Of a stretch of DNA of 64,000 nt, positions 5,540-63,530 are shown piece after piece; position 1 is the first letter of the stretch; each line of letters opens with the position of its first letter. The notes under the pieces are model-generated. The model did no database searches and had not been told where the DNA came from. It saw only the letters and a list, made by a program, of their open reading frames with translations. Source of the stretch: Schmidtea polychroa. Taxonomy: Eukaryota. The position numbers and the translations under genes are program-made. Where the stretch lies: the NCBI GenBank assembly GCA_044892525.1, contig CM097885.1, forward strand, positions 14,510,001 to 14,574,000, in the 5' to 3' direction.

Positions 5540-13971
<8,432 letters not shown>

Positions 13972-23640: not shown

Positions 23641-26545
23641 CGCTTTTAGTTTTACTAGTCGCCCTTATGTTTATAAGAAATAAAAAACCTTATAGTGGTA
23701 TGGTTTCTGAAAGATTTTCTTTTGGAAAGTTTGCGAAGAATTTTCGTAATGTCGAAAGTGGAAGGATATTTGGACTACTATTTGGTATAGGTGTGAATGT
23801 TGTTACTTGGATATTTGTTGATATATTCCACACAGTAATAATAGAAAATAGTCTTTGTCTCCTTGATTTGTTCTTGCGATTGTAAATTATTCAATTCAAT
23901 ACAGTAAAAATACAAAATAGTTCTAATTTCTTTGATTTGTTCTTGTGTTTATAAATTATCCAATTCTATTCAGTAAAAATATAAAGTAGTTCAAATTTCT
24001 TTTGAATTTTTTTATTGATTTTTTTTCCAATTTTTAATTTTTTCATTTTTAATATAGCGATAATTTACTATAGTACTATTAGTTTTTTTTAAAGTAATTT
24101 ATTCCTTGGCGTTAAGGACACCATAACGGGAGTAAAAACAAAACCTAATTGAGGTTCTGTTTTGACTCGTAATTAAAATAAAAATATATCATTCTACTAC
24201 ATTTACCATTACTTTTCACTAATTAATTTTCTTTGCGTTTTGTGTTAAATATTTTAATTCTGTATCTACATTAATTTTACATAACATCAACATTTATGAT
24301 TGAGAAGTCTCTGGAAATTTTTAAACAAAACTAAAAGCAACTTTAAATGAAATAAATGGTGTAAAATTAATACTTCTTTGATGTTTTTGTGAGTCTGAAA
24401 AGAACAAATATAATAAGTAATAAAATAAGTGTAACAGGTATTAGGTATTAGGATCGATCTAGGTGGGGTTGATTCTTGAAACTAACTTAAATTTTATCTG
24501 ACTCCAAATATGAAACTTTCTGGCGAGTAGCTTTAATAAATATTTGTGTATTCGTAAATATAGTTCAAATGAATAAGTCTCAAGAGTGTTATACAAATAA
24601 ATATATTAAGCAATATACCATATTTTACAAAGTATGTGTAACTAAAAATGCCTCTTGGTATAAGATAGAAATCGATTGTTCAAACCGTCCTCAGATGGCT
24701 AAGATGCCATACACTAGGACTAAGTGGTTACCCAAGCGTCGATCGATTTACCCGAATTTTGCTCAATCCCTTAGAATCAGGTTTTTCTAACGTTTCTTAA
24801 TTTTAATCCCTTTTGAATTTTATCTCAAAACAGGTAACTCAACAGAAGAATCACTGACACCTGTTGACTGGTCTAAATATATAAATTGAAACTCAAAATA
24901 ATGATAAATTAACGTTAAGACGAGTACCTTTTGAATTAAAAAAAATATCTTGCAAAGTTGAGAAGCTATCTTTTATTATTCTCTCTAATCAATTATTATT
25001 TATTATCGGTCTAAATTCTGCTTTTTTTTGTTCTTTTTTAGCACAAACTTTTCTCAATACTATATTTAAAATCTATAAGCTTTTTTATATTTTCTGTTAT
25101 CCAAGAATTTAAAAGTTCATCACAAATTTTAGTAATTATAAAATTTTAAAAATATTCCATTTATTACTTAGCCCATAATGGCCATCCCAACCCCAACATA
25201 AAGACAAGTTATCATTTCTTTTAAAGTAAGAATTTGCAATTGAGTTTAAAGTAGTAAAAAAAAGTTGCGATTACAACCAATCAACTCTAAACCAATTAAT
25301 AACGCACACAGGGCATTGTTTTCGCTTTTCATTATTCCATATTTATCAGTCCACCAATCTTGAAACGATCTGTTAGAGTTGGACTCTGTTCTATTTTTCT
25401 TATTTTCTGACATTCTAAAGTTGAAATATGTATATTATTTATTTATAATTAAAATCGTTAATGAATTACCCTTTTAAATCAATTATATTATTTGTCCTCA
25501 AAAAATATAAATATGTATTTTTTCTATAAGCAAAAAATAATATAGTAAAATAAGATAACACAACTTTCTATCGCACTTACAAAGTATCAACTATACTGAA
25601 TTAGTGAATATGAAATGAATTCTGCAAATATCCATATTCATATGTATATATTTGAAAATCCAAAGCATACTATGTTCAAATAAAAACAATAACCGTCTAA
25701 AAATTGATAACACATTTTTTATATTTAAAACCACGTGTACATATTTGTACATACACAAATAATATAATTACATATCTTATAACGTTGAAATAAAATCGCC
25801 AGAAATCTGTGAAAACTCTTAATTTTGCTTTTTAAATATCATATTTTTGCATTGAATTTGAATTTAGTTCACAATTTTTTTCAAAATCGATAAACGATTT
25901 TGTGTTAGTTAGAGTATGAAAAACGAAAGATATTATACGTGCCAACGAAAATTTATCTGCATGCCACTTTGAGCACGCGTGCCACAGGTTCGCCATCCCT
26001 GTTATAAACTATATAACTATGGATTAAAAATCTAAATTCCTAAATTGTAGATTATAAAAGGGTGAATCATAACTACAAAGTCTAAAATGTAAGATCGTAA
26101 AATGTTGAATATAAAATTATAACCAAAAAACTATACAACCATAAAGTAAAAATCTAAATTTCTAAATGGTAGACTATAACTGTATAAATCATAACCATCA
26201 AGCCTAAAATATAACATCGTAAAATATTGAATATCAAATTATAAACCATATAACCATAAATTAAGAATCCAAATTCCTAAATGGTAGACTATGAAACTAT
26301 AAATCTGAAAATATAAAATTAGGAAGTAGAAAATATAAAATTGTAAGATGTTAAATAAAAATTTATAAATTATAAAGTGTATAACGAGAACTTGTAAAGT
26401 ATGAATTTATAAACTGTAAGATATAAAATTGGAAATTGTAGAACGAAAACCTGTAAAGTGCAAAATGTAACAATCTAACTCATATAATATGAATCTCTAA
26501 ATTGTGAAAGACAAAATACGAATGGTAAAATATAAAGTTATATTA

Positions 26546-26714
<169 letters not shown>

Positions 26715-27820
26715 TACTATTAGCATTATTATTGTTCTTATTACTATTCTTATTATTCTCATTGTTATTATTATCATTATTATTATTATTATTATTATTA
26801 CTATTATTATTATTACCACTATGATCACTTGCTATCCTTGTTACCACCATTTTTACTGTTATGATCATAATTAGTATTACTTACTAAGAAAGCAAAGATC
26901 AGTTATATATTTTTTGCTGATTCCCATATCTAGATTTGGAGTCAATTCTGTTGCCCAATAAAAACGTTCCTAACCTAAAAAATCTATATTTAGCAACACC
27001 CCCCCCAGAGAAATATCAAGGAAAAATTCAAGACGGGGATACGACCATCAAGAGTTTCCAGGAGACGGTGAGAATGACTCCGGCGAACCATGCAATCGAA
27101 TGAATAAGCCATAATTCGCAGAGATTTACTTACGTACAGAATACAAATATTCCCGGAAAATTTCCAAATTCGGCGAGTGACAAATTGCGGGTCCAAATCA
27201 AATATTGGGCATGAAATGACATTCCCTGGGAAGGATTATGGGAAGACTGCTCCAAGCTAACCTATTCCCTCTTACTCGATCGAGGTTCATAATAATATCA
27301 CCTAAAAATTAAGGAATTAGGAAAATTAGATAAATTACTTGCATGTAGAGCAAACCACTCATAACGAGCACAACCGAAGGAAAGGTAAGCAGACGAAGAG
27401 CTTAGTTCGTTGCTAGTACCTGTCGCCCCAGCGAGCCCGAATTTAGTGGCCTAAAAATGACGATCTAAAAAACCACACATTTTATTAAAATATAAATTAA
27501 AATTCATAAATAGTAATTAAAATTACCACTTAGTGGTAAACAAAATTTTTGAATGTAAAAGATTAATTTAAACAACGAATTTTGACGAAAATTTTTTTTG
27601 TTATCTAGTTGATAAAGTGTGAGATCTTATTCTACTGTTCCTAGGATTATAGATGCTGGTTTTAAAATAAATGATTTTTTCTTTAACTTTGAATTTTTAA
27701 AAAAGGGGAAAAGGGATCAACAAAATCCCGTGTTTAACCTCGTAATACAATCTATATAAAGTGGCCTGATTGTTACTTTGTAGAAATGTCCTACTCAATA
27801 CTATATTTAAAATCTATAAG

Positions 27821-28125
27821 CGTACCCGGTACATTTGGTACCACATCCATCGGTGGAGTCAGGGGCGGGACCTGAATTGCGCAGATCGAGTGATCCGGCA
27901 AGGCCCCGAAGCAGATGCCCGGCGTGGGTGAAGACGGAGCCGGAGAACAACCGGTGGCAGGAAGCCCGCGATCAAGCGGCCTGGGACGTAGAAGCCGCTC
28001 AGATCCAGCTTAAGAAGATAGACTTGCAGATCAGGGCAGAAAGGGAGGGGGTGCCCCTAGAAGAGCTAGAGGAAGCCGACGTACCCCCGAGAAAGAGAGG
28101 GAGGCCCCGCAAGTATCAATTGTGA
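27821..28125 (+). CDS. Small AT-hook protein, start unresolved
   Basis: Open frame ending ...EELEEADVPPRKRGRPRKYQL* (AT-hook core RGRP), with VKTE SUMO consensus. TATATAAA at 27753 and an ATG at 27786 are present, but that ATG is out of frame. Confidence 0.6.
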
Positions 28126-28404
28126 TTAAGAGCCGACATGTGACTTACTTCAATAACTTCTTATCTAGTGGGTGTGGCTTAATTAATGATCAATTTTGAC
28201 TAATGTTATTGTTCAATAATAATCTCTTATTCATTGGGTGTGTATTAATTAATAATTACAATTGACTGGGGTTTATTATCAAATGAAGTGTTTTCCTTTT
28301 AAATTGAGTTGTTGTAACAAGTATAACAATGTCCTAGCGACACATTATTAGTATTGATTAATCAGTAAACTCTTTTAGCAGGTGTAAAATTAATAACACC
28401 CTTT

Positions 28405-28884
28405 ATGTTTTCAGTGTATAAGTTAATGGAAAACCTGCGGAAGGATCGGGAGCTTGCACAGCAACAAGCAGACGAACTCCGGACCCGAGTAGATAAACTA
28501 AAAGGGAAATGTCGGGAGTTTGAGGGGACCTGGTTTAGCCCTGAGGCGATGAAAAGGAAAACAACCCAGATTCTCCAGCTGCAGACACAAGCCGCCCAGG
28601 ATCAAATGGAGATTCGCGCCCTAAAATTGCAGGTGCGGGCGCTCGAAACCGAACGGAATGAACGGTTCGTGCAGGAATCCGCAGCAAGGCAAATCCGGCC
28701 GCTGACCATCGAGCTGGCAGCGATATATCCTCCGGCCGCTGAAAGCAAACCTAAACGAAAACGGCTAGGACGAAACATCCGTGAAAAATTAAAGAAGGCC
28801 AGGCTGGCCGAGTACGAAAGGCAAGTGGACTCATCGCAAATGTCTACGACGGGACTAATTGGTCCCACTATTAAGCCGAGTTGA
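28405..28884 (+). CDS. Unknown coiled-coil/basic protein, EGTWFSP family paralog A
   Basis: 159-aa GC-rich ORF (or 152 aa from ATG 28426 after acceptor-like TTTTCAG). Collinear similarity to the 30010 ORF, with NLS-like KPKRKRL. Confidence 0.75.
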   Translation: MFSVYKLMENLRKDRELAQQQADELRTRVDKLKGKCREFEGTWFSPEAMKRKTTQILQLQTQAAQDQMEIRALKLQVRALETERNERFVQESAARQIRPLTIELAAIYPPAAESKPKRKRLGRNIREKLKKARLAEYERQVDSSQMSTTGLIGPTIKPS

Positions 28885-30009
28885 ACTGTTATTCCGTTTT
28901 TTTGTAGTGTGTTTTGTATATTTGTAGTATTAAAATAATATTTTTATTGTTATTACAATAATACATATTTTGTAGCGTTAAAATAATGTCTGGTATATTT
29001 ATGATTGTCGGAGAAACGAGAGGTTGTGCGTAAGGTTGGGAAAACAATCTTGATAAGGGACCTGAGGAAATCGGACACAAACCTTCTAACGGTAGTCCGT
29101 GAACCCATGGAGTACTCGACGATTATAGTGCCTCGATGCGCTCACTTTTCGCGGGTACTCAACCCCTTGGTACAGTACCAACGTTGATTACTCAACGGGT
29201 ACCAAGGGGAAACTAATGTTGTATTTTGGGTTACGCTGGTAACAGCACTTAATCATTCGACCACCTGTAACCCACCATAGGGAATAGATTATTAGCTTCA
29301 GTTCATTCGCAATTCTCCGAATCAGACACACACTACATAAAGCTTTTACTCGTGAGAACTCTAGTAGAGATTCCAATCGACAATGTCATGAGAGTACACG
29401 CATTGACACACTATAGAGAAATTCCGTATTTTCATGCAGTGACATGATATTTTCAAACGGCATTCGCAATACAAACAGATAACTATATTCCTATACAATC
29501 ACTCACTAGTTTGCGTCGTTATGACGACGATTACGGCGGAGATTTAAAATTAAAAATTGGAAATAATAAATGGAGAGGTGAAAGTTAGTCGTTATGAACT
29601 CTTCGTCTAATTGATCGACTTTAGCGTAGAGCCAGGAACCTAAACGGGCGAGACATAACACAAAAAATAATCGAGTGACATAATAAACAAGATTAATGAT
29701 AATAAAATAATATTGTAAAACGGTAATAATATACTTAATCATAATCGACCAACCCCGAGATATAGACGAATAAATCATTGTGAATATTCCCATTTTCTTT
29801 TAAATAAATTACAGGGATTTGTGCGAATTATCGTGGATGTTTTGAGGCATGAATGAGTTTAGGGACGAACATTGGGATGTATGTGTGAGATATTTTTCTT
29901 TTAATCTCATTTTATATATAATGTGGGCGGTAAAACTCGCGTCGTGAAAGTACGATTGTCGATCAAACTAAATGTTAAAAATGCAAATGTGAATATCTTT
30001 AATCTTTAG

Positions 30010-30771
30010 ATGACTACCCCAACCAATACTGGGAAAATTCTTCGTCCTTGTTTTTCCTGCGCTGATAAAAATGCTGACATCGCGCAGCTTCATCTCTACA
30101 TCGGGGCACTGAAGAAGAGAATTGACCTTTATGAAGGCACGTGGTTCTCCCCGCCACAAATGAAAGAGGAAAAGAGTAAGATATTACGTCTGGAGCACTG
30201 CCGTGACAGTCTCCTAGAAGAGAGTAGGTGCCAGAGGCTAACTATAAAAGCCCAATCAGAAGCACTCCATAAAGTATACTCCGAGTCCGAAATAGCAAAG
30301 CGAGTTCGGGAATATCCAGTACAAGACGGGACCAATGTGTTCCCGATCCATCACCAATCATCAAAGCCATCAACCACTGGTTGTAAGGGGCACGGCCCGA
30401 ATCTGCCACCAATTCCCGCTCCAATTTTCTCGGGTTATAGGCCTATGGCAGGAGGCTCATCGGACCCTATCTTGGCTCCGATTCTCGTCTCTCAACCTAT
30501 CACCCAGTCTCCATTAGAAGCTACCCAGCCACATCGGAAACGCAAGAGGCTGACGCGCTCTGAGAAGAATCAGAAGCGCAGGAACGCCATGGCGGCGCTA
30601 GAAGCTTCTCTATCCGTGGCCCAGTCCACCATTAAGGATATCTCAGCCTCCCACGTAATTCCGGCCAAGGAGATATTCAGGGTAGTTCCGGCCGATGGTA
30701 TTAAGTACCTTGCGGATCGCCGGTTGCCAGTAGACATAGACGAGGTATTCGCCGATGGAGATGTTTTCTGA
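30010..30771 (+). CDS. Unknown coiled-coil/basic protein, EGTWFSP family paralog B
   Basis: 253-aa ORF. TATA-like 29913-29921 and a plausible 60-nt 5'UTR intron (29950-30009, GTACGA..TTTAG) ending at the ATG. Contains CxxC, a Pro-rich linker and HRKRKRL. Confidence 0.78.
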   Translation: MTTPTNTGKILRPCFSCADKNADIAQLHLYIGALKKRIDLYEGTWFSPPQMKEEKSKILRLEHCRDSLLEESRCQRLTIKAQSEALHKVYSESEIAKRVREYPVQDGTNVFPIHHQSSKPSTTGCKGHGPNLPPIPAPIFSGYRPMAGGSSDPILAPILVSQPITQSPLEATQPHRKRKRLTRSEKNQKRRNAMAALEASLSVAQSTIKDISASHVIPAKEIFRVVPADGIKYLADRRLPVDIDEVFADGDVF

Positions 30772-32606
30772 ATTTCCAACGCGACGAACGTGTCCATCTC
30801 TTATTTAGAGGAGACCTAGGAACTAACATCCCTGTATATAACAATTTATTGGTGTTATTTAGTTGATATTTTATTAAACGGTGGTGTACGATGTTCGGTT
30901 CCGATAATCGTGAATGTAATATAAACAATACAAATTTTTATTTATTATTTGTTGATTTAATGGTGAGAGCGATGAGTGAAATGCATGGATGAATTGATAA
31001 ACTGGATATATGTCATTGAATGAAGGCCGTCCCCTTGGACCAGGGTCGGGCCAAATGCAAGTGTAGGAACGGGTAAGTCCTTCTAAGGCACCATAGAACC
31101 TGAACTGAGGAGGGGTTAGGAGTAGTCTTAAGGCAGAGGCTCACCTGCTAACTTCTTCCGACCCGTGTGGGCAGCACGAACGTAGAACATCATTACGGGC
31201 TCATACGCGGGAATATTTGCATGATCATGTGGTGTGTGTAAGGGAAGTGTCTGAGCGGAACGATGAGGATTGGTGTGTGCAATAGTGATGTTTATTGTTT
31301 TCCCCTACATGCGCCCAACAATATATATAATAATAATACAGAAAGAAGAAAATTTACATACTCATCAACGAGTCACTACACACTATGTTCTCGGACTACG
31401 TCAATAGATATTCAGTTACATACCTGGCTGATGTTGCGCATATACTTTGTATAAACGTCGTGCAACGTAATAATTTTGACTAAAGATAATTAACGTATGA
31501 TTTAAATATAATTTTTTTGTTTAAAATCAACAATAATAATGTTGTTACATTTTGTCCTAGTACTTGGACTTGATACCAGAAGCATTAGTAGAATAATTTT
31601 ATAAATCATTACATATAATCGCTTGTCAATTTCAATAGAAGAGTCAACAAATCTAAACGTTATTTAAAAGATTTTCCATAGAATTTACACAAAATCGATA
31701 ACAAAAAATTAAGTTTTATTAACACAAACTTACAAAATCATAAGTGCATAAGAATTCGATTATATTATTTGTCACTTGATTGATATCGATATATCATTAA
31801 ATATCTCTCTCTCACTATATATATATCTATGTATAATTTATTACAGGATTTGTTACAACGAATTTCTATCTCTATATCATGCTGGCATTATAAATGTACA
31901 ATTACTATTAATGTTATTATTATTATTATTATTATTCGATATCGTTTATACAATTTCTTGCTGTCCACACACACGCACACACACAGATTCATTTGGGCAT
32001 TCAATCACATATCTATATTTTTCCATGATACCATAAAAATAAATTATATATTAAATTTACAAAAAAATCTCAACAATTTTTGATTACAAAAAAATCAAAT
32101 GGAAAAAAACAATCTGCATAATTAGAATGAAAATATTTGGTGGTATGACAATGAACATTGACTGTAATCTCGCTGAAAATTGAAACATCGCCATCATCAT
32201 TTTAATAATAATTAATAATTCCTATTACAATTATTAAATTTGTCAACAAACTAATATACGGTTGCTGATTAACGATAGTCAATGAACAAATAATGTCATT
32301 GGTAACAATAACAATAATATCAATATTAATAAATATATCAATAATAATAATTATATCAATAATAATAATTATATCAATAATAATAATTATATCAATAATA
32401 ATAATTATATCAATAATAATAATTATATCAATAATAATAAATATATCAATATCAATAATAACAATTTGTCAATAAAAAGCAAGTTGATCCGTTGTAGTAT
32501 TTATATGACAATGAAAACTGCTTCCAGTTTGCGAATCAGATAAAAGTAAATATAAACAAATTATTGAATTTGTATTCGGAAAAAGTGGTTTACGATCAAA
32601 AATACT

Positions 32607-60030: not shown

Positions 60031-63000
60031 ATGTCGTTAACTTTTGAACAGGATTTAAAATATAATTTAGAAGATGTTTTAGCAGCTTCTAATATGGCGA
60101 CCACGTCTATGGATTTTTTCATAAAGAAGCTATTCCCAAATGCTTATCATATAGGAGATTATGTTGAAACATTCATTAAAGAATGCGATAAATATTTTAA
60201 AGTGGTACAAATGCCTACTTCAAGACAAGAAGTGATGATCGAATTACTGATCGATAAAGAGATCAGAGATATATATACAGGAGTTGACCAAAATATCAAA
60301 TGTTATAAGGAAAGATTGCGGAAGGCATTCGTCCAGAAAACAAGTTTGGCAGAGGATTTACAATCTGCTATATCTTATAGACAGACGACTGAGGAGCCCG
60401 ATAAATATTTTACTATCATAGACGAGTTAGTCGATAAAATATTGGGGCATGAGTTAACCAAGGAAAGTCTAACAGAATGTCTGCTAGTACACTGTGCAGC
60501 CGAGCAGACTTTAAAACGAGAATTGTGTCAAAATGACTCTAACGGAACAACAGAAGTGAAAAAAAAATCAAGAAGTTACACGAATCTTATATAGTTGCAG
60601 AAGAGATCTTTGCAGTGAGAGAAAGGAGGCCAGAACAGAATATAACAAGAAGTTACAGAGATGCGGTAACAAATCAAGCAAGAAATATTGTATCAGCAAG
60701 ATATAATAGCGAGCCGATAGATTATCGAGAAGAAATACCGAACAGAACTAAGAACGAATGTTGGACATGTCACAAGGTAGGACATTTGAGTAGCGATTAC
60801 ATAACAAAGAATGCAGTTACATGTTTTACATGTGGAAGACAAGGACATTTAAGAAGTCAGTGTCAACAGATGCAGAGAAAGGTAGTCGAATGTTATGCGT
60901 GTTGTAACCCGTGACACGTGAGAAGAAATCGTCAAAAAATAAAGTGTACGAGGTGTAGCTTTAGAGGTCATAAAGAGGCAGATTGTTACACAAATTTGGA
61001 GAGAATGAGATATCGGAGAATCAATGAGAATTTTGGAAGACAAGAAGAGCGATACGAAGCAGGGCATGGTTATCAAGGAACTAGAAAGGATACCAGACAA
61101 GCATACAAGAGATAAGTAGCATTCATAAACGAACCAAGTGATAAAAGAATAGAAGATAAATACAGAGAATACCCAAATATCAACACCCAGATAGAAGAGG
61201 AGATAGTCGGGCAGTGTGTTAAACAGCGATGCTGACTCCCAAATTATTAATTATTACAATAAAAGTAAAATATCATGTATTATAGAAAAAGATGTGAAAG
61301 ATACGGAGGTAACGGAAGAAGAAAATAATGTAATAAGAAAAGTAAACAGATTCCTAAAAAGAATTTTGCAGAAATAAAAAAAGACAAAATAGGAATTCTC
61401 ACATTAGACGAGTGGAAAAATGATATTATTAGTGCAAGACCGACCAAGTGTAACTATTAGAATACAAGACCAGAATATGGAATGCTTGCTCGATACAAGA
61501 GCTACAGTAAATGTCATGAGTTGGAGCAAATTTGAGAAACTTAAAGATGTAGAACTAACAATAACGACTGATACATTGAGATGTTCAAATAATAGTGTTT
61601 TAGAAACGAAAGGTAAAGCAATATTAAAAATAGGAATAAATGGTAGCAAAAACATGTAAAGTTTACGATGGTAAGATATATGATTCCAGAGGTAATTGGT
61701 GGTAGAAAGTTGCAAAAGCAATTTGGTATACAACTAAAGTTACCAGTAGAAGAGGTCTAGAAAATGAAGCAAGAGCACATATGCAGTATCGAAGCCAAAA
61801 ATAATAACTGAGATGGAACGATTTCAAAGAGCAAAGAATACTTTAAAGATAAATATCCCAATACTTCTAAACACTATAAAAAAAGAATCAAAATGTTTTT
61901 ATGGCTGATAAATGAGACATTGGCTGCACAAGGCTGTTGAAGCATAAAATAGAAACTATTTTAAAACCGATAAATATTAAACCTTCTAGACAACCAGTCA
62001 ACTTGGAAGGTAAAATAGTTGAAGCGATAAAAAACTTATGGGAAAATGATATTATCAAAAAGTGTAATTCGCCATGGAACACTCCATTAATATGCGCCTG
62101 AAAGAAAGAAAAGCAAGATTTCAGGCAATTATACCTGGTAACAGAGAGACAGGCGTTCCCTATGCTGAATATAGCAGTAATGTTAGATAAATTGGGTGGA
62201 GCAAAGTATTTCAGCTCGAGAGATCTTGAAAATGCATATTATCAAGTAGAACTAGAAAACGAATCCAAGTTGAAAACGGCGTTTTCAACCAAATCAGGTC
62301 AATACTGTTTTAACAGAATGCCTTTTGGAATAGCAGCGGCACCAGGTACGTTTCAGGAACTGATTGGAAAAGTATTAATGGGTACGAGATATGCAGCAGT
62401 GTACCTAGACGATATTTTGATATTTACAGAAACGATCAATCATAACTACGAAGTTTTAAATGAAGTGCTGTATAAAATTGGAAATGCGGGTCTTAGGATA
62501 AACCCTGAAAAGTGCCATATCCTTAAAGAAAAAGTAAAATATTTAGGTCGCATAATTAACAAGGATGGAATACAGACGAACCCGTCAAAGCTAGACGCTA
62601 TTAAATCATTTGAAAAGCCAAAATGTGTTAAGAATCTGAGAAGCTTCCAAGGAATATGCAATTACTACAGAAGATTTATAAATGAACACGCAAAAAATAT
62701 CAAGAGTTTTAGAAAAGATATGCGGGTTAAGCAACAAATAATTAATTTGGACTGACAAATGCAACATCGCATTCGAAAATATTTAATGTCCTCACCTATT
62801 CTAGGGTATCCAGATTTCGAAAGAGAATTCATTTTAGATACAGATGCGAGTTTTGACACGATTGGAGCAGTATTATCACAGAAAGACGACAACGGGTGCG
62901 AAAAGGTTACAGCATACGGTTCTCATGCAACGAAAAATCATGAAAGGGGATATTGCATAACAAGGAAAGAGTTGCTGGCAATCTATTATTTTTATCAACA

Positions 63001-63530
63001 CTTCAATCATTATTTATATGGAAAACGGTTCGCTTTGAGAACGGACCATAAAGGTATCAAATTTTTGTTATCTACAAAGATACCAATAACAACGCAATAT
63101 CAGACATGGATTAACTACCTCAGTAGTCCGGATCATGCAAATGCAGATATGTTGTCTAGGAGTACATGTGGAACATGCATACAATGTTTATTGGCACACG
63201 AAGACGCGAAAGTGGAAAGAATTGAAACCCGAAGAATAAACACGATGGAAAAAGCTGAAGATTATAAATAGCAAAAAGATAATACAGAAATAGAACAAAT
63301 AAAAAAGGAAAGGACAATGAAAGAACGAAAGTTGTGACAGCATAGATGAAGGAAGAGACAATAAAACTGACAGCACAGGATTCAAGTTGGAAATTTATAC
63401 TGGTTGACAACACGGGGAAAACTATTGAGGGTAAGATATGGATACCTAGATACAAAAGACAAGAAATGATAAGGAGTGTGCATATTTTGCTATCACACGC
63501 AGGAGCAGAACATTTAGTTAAATTTTTCTT
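60031..63530 (+). mobile_element. Decayed Ty3/gypsy element related to the 6.4-kb one, truncated early in integrase
   Basis: PBS TGGCGACCACG at 60095-60105, gag with several zinc knuckles, LLDTRATVNV protease, YLDD RT, DTDAS RNase H and HILLSHAG integrase start. Many stops and frameshifts. Confidence 0.93.

Follow-up and report, generated by a model that had tools for sequence, protein, structure and literature searches.

Related protein genes inside the LTRs of separate families of giant Burro-type Ty3/gypsy retrotransposons in Schmidtea polychroa

The window, the whole stretch of 64,000 nucleotides of Schmidtea polychroa DNA that we analyzed (assembly GCA_044892525.1, contig CM097885.1, positions 14,510,001 to 14,574,000), contains two open reading frames, A and B, that share the motif EGTWFSP and lie in an island of ~40% GC within sequence of ~27% GC. 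Both frames occupy the 3′ parts of LTRs, which meet at position 29278. The features of the locus, in window coordinates, are as follows.

25986–26001, − strand: terminal inverted repeat, presumably hAT-type, that terminates another element, at the point where the A-type LTR is truncated
26002–29277, + strand: A-type Burro LTR, 3′ part; the 5′ part is missing and matches to other copies end there
27786–28125, + strand: AT-hook ORF of the A-type LTR, ~121 aa, coiled coil and AT-hook, acceptor-led; broken in the window copy
28405–28884, + strand: ORF A, 159 aa, the ATG-led frame as first listed
28415–28884, + strand: putative coding exon of ORF A; EGTWFSP at 28522–28542, basic helix KRKRLGRNIREKLKK, acceptor AG at 28413–28414
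29161–29215, + strand: bulged RNA hairpin of the A-type LTR end, with the conserved 8-nt bulge AGTACCAA
29278–31320, + strand: B-type Burro LTR, 3′ part, with the end of the A-type LTR breaking into it at 29278
30010–30771, + strand: ORF B, 253 aa; EGTWFSP hinge at 30133–30153, acceptor AG at 30008–30009; from N to C terminus CxxC, coiled coil, EGTWFSP hinge, coiled coil, Pro-rich linker, basic helix and acidic ΦxxΦΦ tail
31073–31078, + strand: splice-donor-like GTAAGT of the B-type LTR end, a putative donor
31160–31214, + strand: bulged RNA hairpin of the B-type LTR end, one bulge letter changed in the window copy

The element that abuts the A-type LTR at 26001 is one that we take to be of hAT type; its second end was not found within the window. 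An exact 28-bp duplicate occupies 25053–25080 and 27794–27821, the second copy at the rearranged 5′ part of the AT-hook ORF. Elsewhere in the window are two ordinary Ty3/gypsy elements with broken gag-pol frames (6412–11118 and 60031–63271).

The original prediction, that A and B are homologous frames, agrees with a BLASTP alignment of 27/92 identities (E = 2e-9) and a Smith-Waterman score of 99, which was reached by 0 of 5000 global shuffles and 0 of 5000 shuffles in 10-residue windows (maximum 70). Since masking EGTWFSP lowers this score to 48, within the shuffle range, the pairwise signal rests largely on the motif; in multiple alignments, the likeness spans the whole helical core and the basic stretch. 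A first look at the 781-Mb genome gave 6457 candidates for A and 6936 for B, and the best 150 matches scored per ORF were 83–100% identical for A and 78–100% identical for B. A degenerate codon pattern for EGTWF[S/T]P occurs at 2545 genomic places and its reversed control at none. Among the first 30 of these places was a third family, C, that carries the motif, and a genome search with a remote homolog uncovered further diverged lineages. Across families A, B and C, the LTR proteins are only 25–38% identical.

A profile search returned 17 proteins at E ≤ 0.001, of which one (P0015, a TPR protein) was dropped as spurious, as it matches only profile positions 4–40. The core is common to the other 16, and W45, P48 and R73 are invariant in the 13 of these that were aligned. 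Most of the remote homologs (P0002–P0017) are public gene models that join the exon to unrelated proteins (SNF transporter, S8 peptidase, actin, phosphatase, hAT and others). Such models are to be expected, because gene predictors catch the LTR exon; they are probably mis-predictions, with exonization through the acceptor a possibility, and the LTR exon would thus explain a class of false chimeric gene models that makes up most of the database homologs. Searches of proteins for homologs, confined to near lengths, found 0 among 65 candidates with A and 0 among 6384 with alignment A3. In Pfam, A, B, C and the remote hits had no matches other than weak coiled-coil ones or ones below the cut-off, a sequence search of the PDB gave a single match (E = 4.5), and Foldseek found nothing in the PDB at E ≤ 0.001. 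The best Atlas scores (0.90 and 0.88) were both to unnamed clusters and serve as leads only; a bZIP row scored 0.83. The bZIP fold was rejected, as the basic helix lies C-terminal to the coiled coil, not directly N-terminal to a leucine zipper, and Pfam bZIP was not matched. Judged by these Pfam and PDB sequence and fold searches, the A/B/C protein appears to belong to no recognized family, as had been proposed.

Many ORF B matches form same-strand pairs ~26.4 kb apart, and in the stretches that we fetched, direct repeats 93–99.9% identical flank internal regions with gag/CCHC, Monjiviricetes_fusion, PR-RT-RH-IN, ankyrin plus BIR-RING or RING, TRAF-Zn and MATH ORFs. Pfam searches of the internal ORFs of A, B and C elements recovered the order PR-RT-RH-IN together with gag CCHC knuckles, an env-like fusion glycoprotein between gag and pol (PF24664, E = 1e-24 to 1e-67), and cargo of ankyrin, MATH/TRAF, BIR (in the A type only) and Bcl-2-like (weak, E = 0.04) domains. 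The elements span ~29.8, 31.5 and 38.7 kb. Full A-type LTRs measure 4.1–5.3 kb (TGTTGGG...CCCACCA) and full B-type solo LTRs ~4.0–4.2 kb (TGTTGGG...CCAACA). Target-site duplications of 4 bp are perfect around all 4 A solo LTRs, all 4 full elements examined and 4 of the 5 B solo LTRs, the remaining one having a mismatch, and 5′ LTRs lead into a primer site that matches the genome's own tRNA-Pro(TGG); termini, duplications and primer sites were scored in other copies, as those in the window lack 5′ ends. The LTR ORFs run in the same direction as the polyprotein, their stop codons lying ~390 nt upstream of the LTR end in A, ~550 nt in B and ~540 nt in C, and the core profile has no match in the internal tiles of A, B or C elements.

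This layout is that of the planarian Burro/GYPSM1 elements, which share a length of ~30–39 kb, multi-kb LTRs, accessory BIR/RING/TRAF ORFs and the order gag-CCHC-(MATH)-Bcl2-like-env-PR-RT-RH-IN-ankyrin (PMC6431247, in extract). The elements that carry A and B are Burro-type by domain layout, rather than by comparison with the named Burro1–4 sequences. Their pol regions are far more alike than their LTR proteins: 94% against ~37% for B and C, 73.5% against ~25% for A and B. Some B and C elements (L053/L054 versus L094/L095; L048 versus L096) have polyproteins 86–94% identical and LTRs that cannot be aligned as DNA, which suggests LTR exchange.

Several observations on these and neighboring elements may be recorded here. 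The primer tRNA, tRNA-Pro(TGG), is encoded in long tandem arrays with a 475-bp period (L119–L121, G000:C1:130.90–130.95 Mb), and there are 2164 pattern matches genome-wide. Directly upstream of the window lies a much more diverged env-bearing gypsy element (L052), with pol 34–39% identical to that of A, B and C elements; its neighborhood contains no clear copy of the LTR gene, only a weak relic in L087. An 898-bp high-copy insertion interrupts one B-element LTR (L048:4993–5891) and is also found beside a C element. A 14-kb inverted duplication (L021–L025) includes an A-type LTR and ORFs that we take to be Polinton capsid-like. The C4 pair, considered as two LTRs, was rejected, as it is an inverted duplication.

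Why do A and B adjoin in the window? In two intact B solo LTRs, B sequence continues upstream of the position corresponding to 29278. Since the window instead has an exact A-LTR terminus there, the A-type element likely integrated into the B-type LTR, making the adjacency a nested insertion. Matches of other copies to the A-type LTR stop at 29277–29280 in 7 of 8 stretches and at 29295 in the eighth. The partner is absent from the matching place in 9/9 other A loci and 9/9 other B loci. The families do cluster at times: at one locus (L044), an old A-type LTR lies ~1.5 kb behind a B LTR, the opposite order. Neither LTR end in the window is followed by a primer site, and neither the window nor seven tiles covering 70 kb upstream of it yielded the missing left halves of the two LTRs. 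The window copies are truncated LTR remnants.

Selection on the reading frames was estimated from open-frame natural copies, with interrupted copies left out, a choice that biases dN/dS downwards; with that bias, dN/dS is 0.075–0.12 for pairs at dS > 0.3 (12 A, 14 B and 5 C copies) and 0.13–0.30 for close pairs. Synonymous sites are saturated in 11/66 A, 33/91 B and 8/10 C pairs. Other frames give pN/pS of 1.2–2.9, and the antisense frame that shares third positions gives 0.24–0.37. By these ratios, purifying selection is acting in the element lineage, in keeping with the original prediction. That prediction had also leaned on both frames being open, which is true of the window. Taken alone, open frames are weak evidence, because the window copies are young (dS 0.07–0.11 to their nearest sampled relatives) and, by hand count, stops are present in 28 of the 150 best A matches and missing from the other 122. 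The private changes of the window copies are 4 synonymous to 1 nonsynonymous for A and 1:1 for B; all other copies also lean synonymous.

A-type LTRs carry another gene. Its ORF is open in other natural copies, with YAG 2 nt before the ATG in 7/7; the window copy has a rearranged 5′ part, an in-frame stop and a frameshift. The ~121-aa protein has an acidic N terminus, a coiled coil and a C-terminal AT-hook (Pfam AT_hook, E = 0.006–0.008, below cut-off), and dN/dS is ~0.07–0.36 (15 pairs). We saw no counterpart in B or C LTRs. A TATA box before this ORF was considered and rejected, since it is not conserved, and the mid-LTR blocks showed no clear promoter.

The LTR exons have the marks of splicing. 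A YAG acceptor after a pyrimidine/AT tract lies at the coding start in 12/12 A and 14/14 B copies; in C it precedes the start by a few bases. The contigs inspected contained no splice joint at the acceptors, which carries no weight either way. As the first in-exon Met of ORF A is not kept in diverged copies, an upstream exon is inferred for A; the ATG at 28405 is probably not the true start, the coding exon appearing to begin instead at the acceptor. Donor-like GTAAG sequences occur in the last 270 nt of the LTR in 5/5 B ends and 4/5 C ends (the fifth is incomplete) and are absent there in A.

A structural model of B contains the helix-hinge-helix core and basic helix that had been predicted: helix 15–41, hinge 42–48, helix 49–100, a disordered linker and helix 183–214, in a full-length model that is weak (pLDDT 64, pTM 0.33). 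Two copies of residues 10–118 are modeled as a symmetric parallel coiled-coil dimer with the hinge in the interface (contacts agree ≥96%, pLDDT ≥81), scoring 0.61 against 0.00 for the best of three controls, in a test that coiled coils can pass through likeness to solved coiled coils and whose mark is reached by 21/30 solved homodimers (eukaryotes 17/29, animals 7/16) and 0/23 single chains. The A/B/C core is thus predicted to pair with itself as a parallel coiled coil, the GTWFSP hinge lying in the homodimer interface, and the dimerization that had been proposed passes in this model.

All 31 proteins contain a basic 15-mer with 8–10 K/R. An acidic ΦxxΦΦ tail is found in 14/14 B, 3/5 C and 0/12 A proteins; one read-through A copy fits the pattern, but its tail is positively charged. 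Nuclear export signal (NES) patterns revealed none common to families A, B and C in the 31 proteins. The NES-like matches in A and most of those in B fall in coiled-coil heptads; a match of the type MAALEASLS[VM] occurs in 11/14 B only, and none is conserved in the 5 C proteins.

Downstream of the coding exons, the LTR ends may form conserved RNA structures. In the last 290 nt of B LTRs, 97% of cells are paired, 8 pairs are changed on both sides, and 0/500 shuffles reach the covariation score while 28/500 reach the pair count, for a structure derived from the same sequences later tested. A similar fold is obtained for A LTR ends, in which 3 pairs have changes on both sides. Families A, B and C have in common a hairpin with an 8-nt bulge, on stems that differ between them: 181/182 cells are paired across 14 sequences, in a hand-anchored alignment that leans towards structure and omits 3 of 17 LTR ends (L026, which lacks the exact bulge pattern, L047 and L102). 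Strands swapped across families pair only 28–82%. RNAalifold finds 0 pairs in an ungapped cross-family alignment, which a 1-nt longer loop misregisters, and Rfam has no match for the LTR-end RNA.

It is all but certain that A and B lie in LTRs, are under selection and are independent of one another. What, then, does the LTR protein do? A reading that we hold tentatively, giving it somewhat less than an even chance, is that A and B are accessory genes encoded in LTRs, brought side by side likely by nested integration, and that the product of each is likely a nuclear homodimer that activates expression of its own element. A spliced subgenomic mRNA would carry the coding exon. The basic helix would act as a nuclear localization signal (NLS) and bind nucleic acid from the LTR of its own element, the simplest target being the conserved bulged hairpin at the LTR end, in the manner of Tat and TAR. 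The acidic ΦxxΦΦ tail of B and C would recruit the host transcription machinery, following the logic of Tas- and VP16-like activation tails, and for the tail-less A, either an upstream exon or the AT-hook protein of the same LTR would supply the activation tail. Several points weigh against activation: the A exon has no acidic tail (0/12), the dimer result may reflect coiled-coil likeness in a protein whose full-length model is weak, and the bulge is near-invariant across families whose proteins have diverged so far, which fits a host factor or Gag (in packaging or priming) equally. No homology to Tat or Tas was found by sequence or fold (Pfam, PDB and Foldseek).

It is also possible, if rather unlikely, that the protein resembles Rev, Rex or CERV, oligomerizing on LTR-end RNA through its Arg-rich helix and so allowing unspliced genomic RNA of 30 kb out of the nucleus. 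Exons led by acceptors imply splicing and hence a need to export unspliced RNA, the LTR-end structure covaries, and CERV of the gypsy element Cer1 offers a precedent (PMC10309623, in extract). The basic stretch of the remote homologs is more Rev-like (NRNRRRRERRR), and one of them, P0003, matches Pfam REV (E = 0.0013, 19.1 bits, cut-off 22). However, this match is restricted to the basic stretch, the families have no leucine-rich NES in common, and the conserved tail is acidic-aromatic rather than NES-like, so that our best reading remains an activator over an export factor. Less probable still would be an accessory that manipulates the host, as an anti-silencing factor, an effector of chromatin or the nucleolus, or a coiled-coil decoy with dominant-negative action. 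In that case the basic helix would be an NLS only, and the hairpin would serve packaging or priming without any relation to the protein. In favor of such a role, divergence of the gene is much faster than that of pol, some remote homologs contain PPPY motifs, Burro elements are rich in host-modulating domains (BIR-RING, TRAF/MATH, Bcl-2-like and ankyrin; PMC6431247, in extract) and, in planarians, are under PIWI control (PMC8532177, in extract). Yet the protein has no likeness to any host domain in Pfam, PDB or Foldseek searches, and its gene moves together with the LTR, where the promoter and RNA signals reside. The original prediction, in contrast, had cast A and B as paralogs, possibly forming a heterodimer. 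As a host or domesticated two-gene cluster, they would have adjacent frames, both open, and window-copy changes that lean synonymous, as those of other copies also do. This is now highly improbable and largely refuted: A and B are each part of a different LTR family of mobile elements, with thousands of copies inside LTRs, each lacks the other at 18/18 other loci checked, the A-B junction is an integration end, and the AT-hook ORF of the same LTR is broken.

A broader picture can be envisioned, one that we consider possible but doubtful. Burro-type elements may be invertebrate "complex retroviruses," in which the LTR is a self-contained regulatory cassette that combines a regulator of a new family (coiled-coil dimer, Arg-rich helix and acidic tail) with its target hairpin. 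Whole LTRs would then be exchangeable between near-identical internal regions, and the many solo LTRs could provide the regulator in trans. In any case, the LTRs of at least three families harbor a protein gene under selection, beside a conserved RNA structure, at >2500 places in one genome. If the protein regulates its element, it and the RNA would form a directly testable pair in a stem-cell model animal group in which PIWI controls these elements.

The LTRs of Ty3/gypsy elements are regarded as non-coding. Although the element type is known, we did not find in the literature searched a gene for a protein of no recognized family that lies wholly inside Ty3/gypsy LTRs, nor a description of an LTR-internal Burro ORF; Grohme 2018, its supplements and Repbase, which lie outside the search, may annotate one. 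Unlike the elements here, Burro/GYPSM1 is described without naming an ORF inside the LTR (extracted text of PMC6431247, figure aside), and the word "Burro" is absent from the extracts of three supplement files of PMC11410931.

Among known systems, the gene position finds a parallel in MMTV, as sag lies in the LTR. As A and B probably are, sag is a spliced accessory gene, listed as singly spliced (PMC12789967, in extract); Sag is a membrane superantigen, whereas the A/B/C protein is basic and helical, with no membrane segment in the model. The genes for Tas and Tat, which consist of a basic region and an activation region, lie mainly between env and the 3′ LTR, so that no copy is present in each LTR. 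Tas of foamy viruses and Tat of lentiviruses are element-encoded activators made from a separate or spliced transcript (PMC12789967, in extract), but A and B lie in the LTR and no sequence or fold match to these proteins was found. With Rev, Rex, Rem and Rec and their response elements, the LTR proteins share an Arg-rich helix, predicted oligomerization and a probable structured RNA at or overlapping the LTR (PMC12789967, in extract); A, B and C differ in having no shared NES, and Pfam REV is matched below cut-off by 1 of 17 remote hits. Plant LTR retrotransposons have additional ORFs that are similarly conserved and selected, some with nuclear products, and proposed to be regulators (PMC7264820, in extract). 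A further parallel is CERV of C. elegans Cer1, a spliced, nuclear and oligomeric Ty3/gypsy regulator in an element with a tRNA-Pro primer site, likened here by description (PMC10309623, in extract). If the LTR protein regulates its element, it would be, as far as we know, the second case after CERV of retrovirus-style self-regulation in an invertebrate gypsy element.
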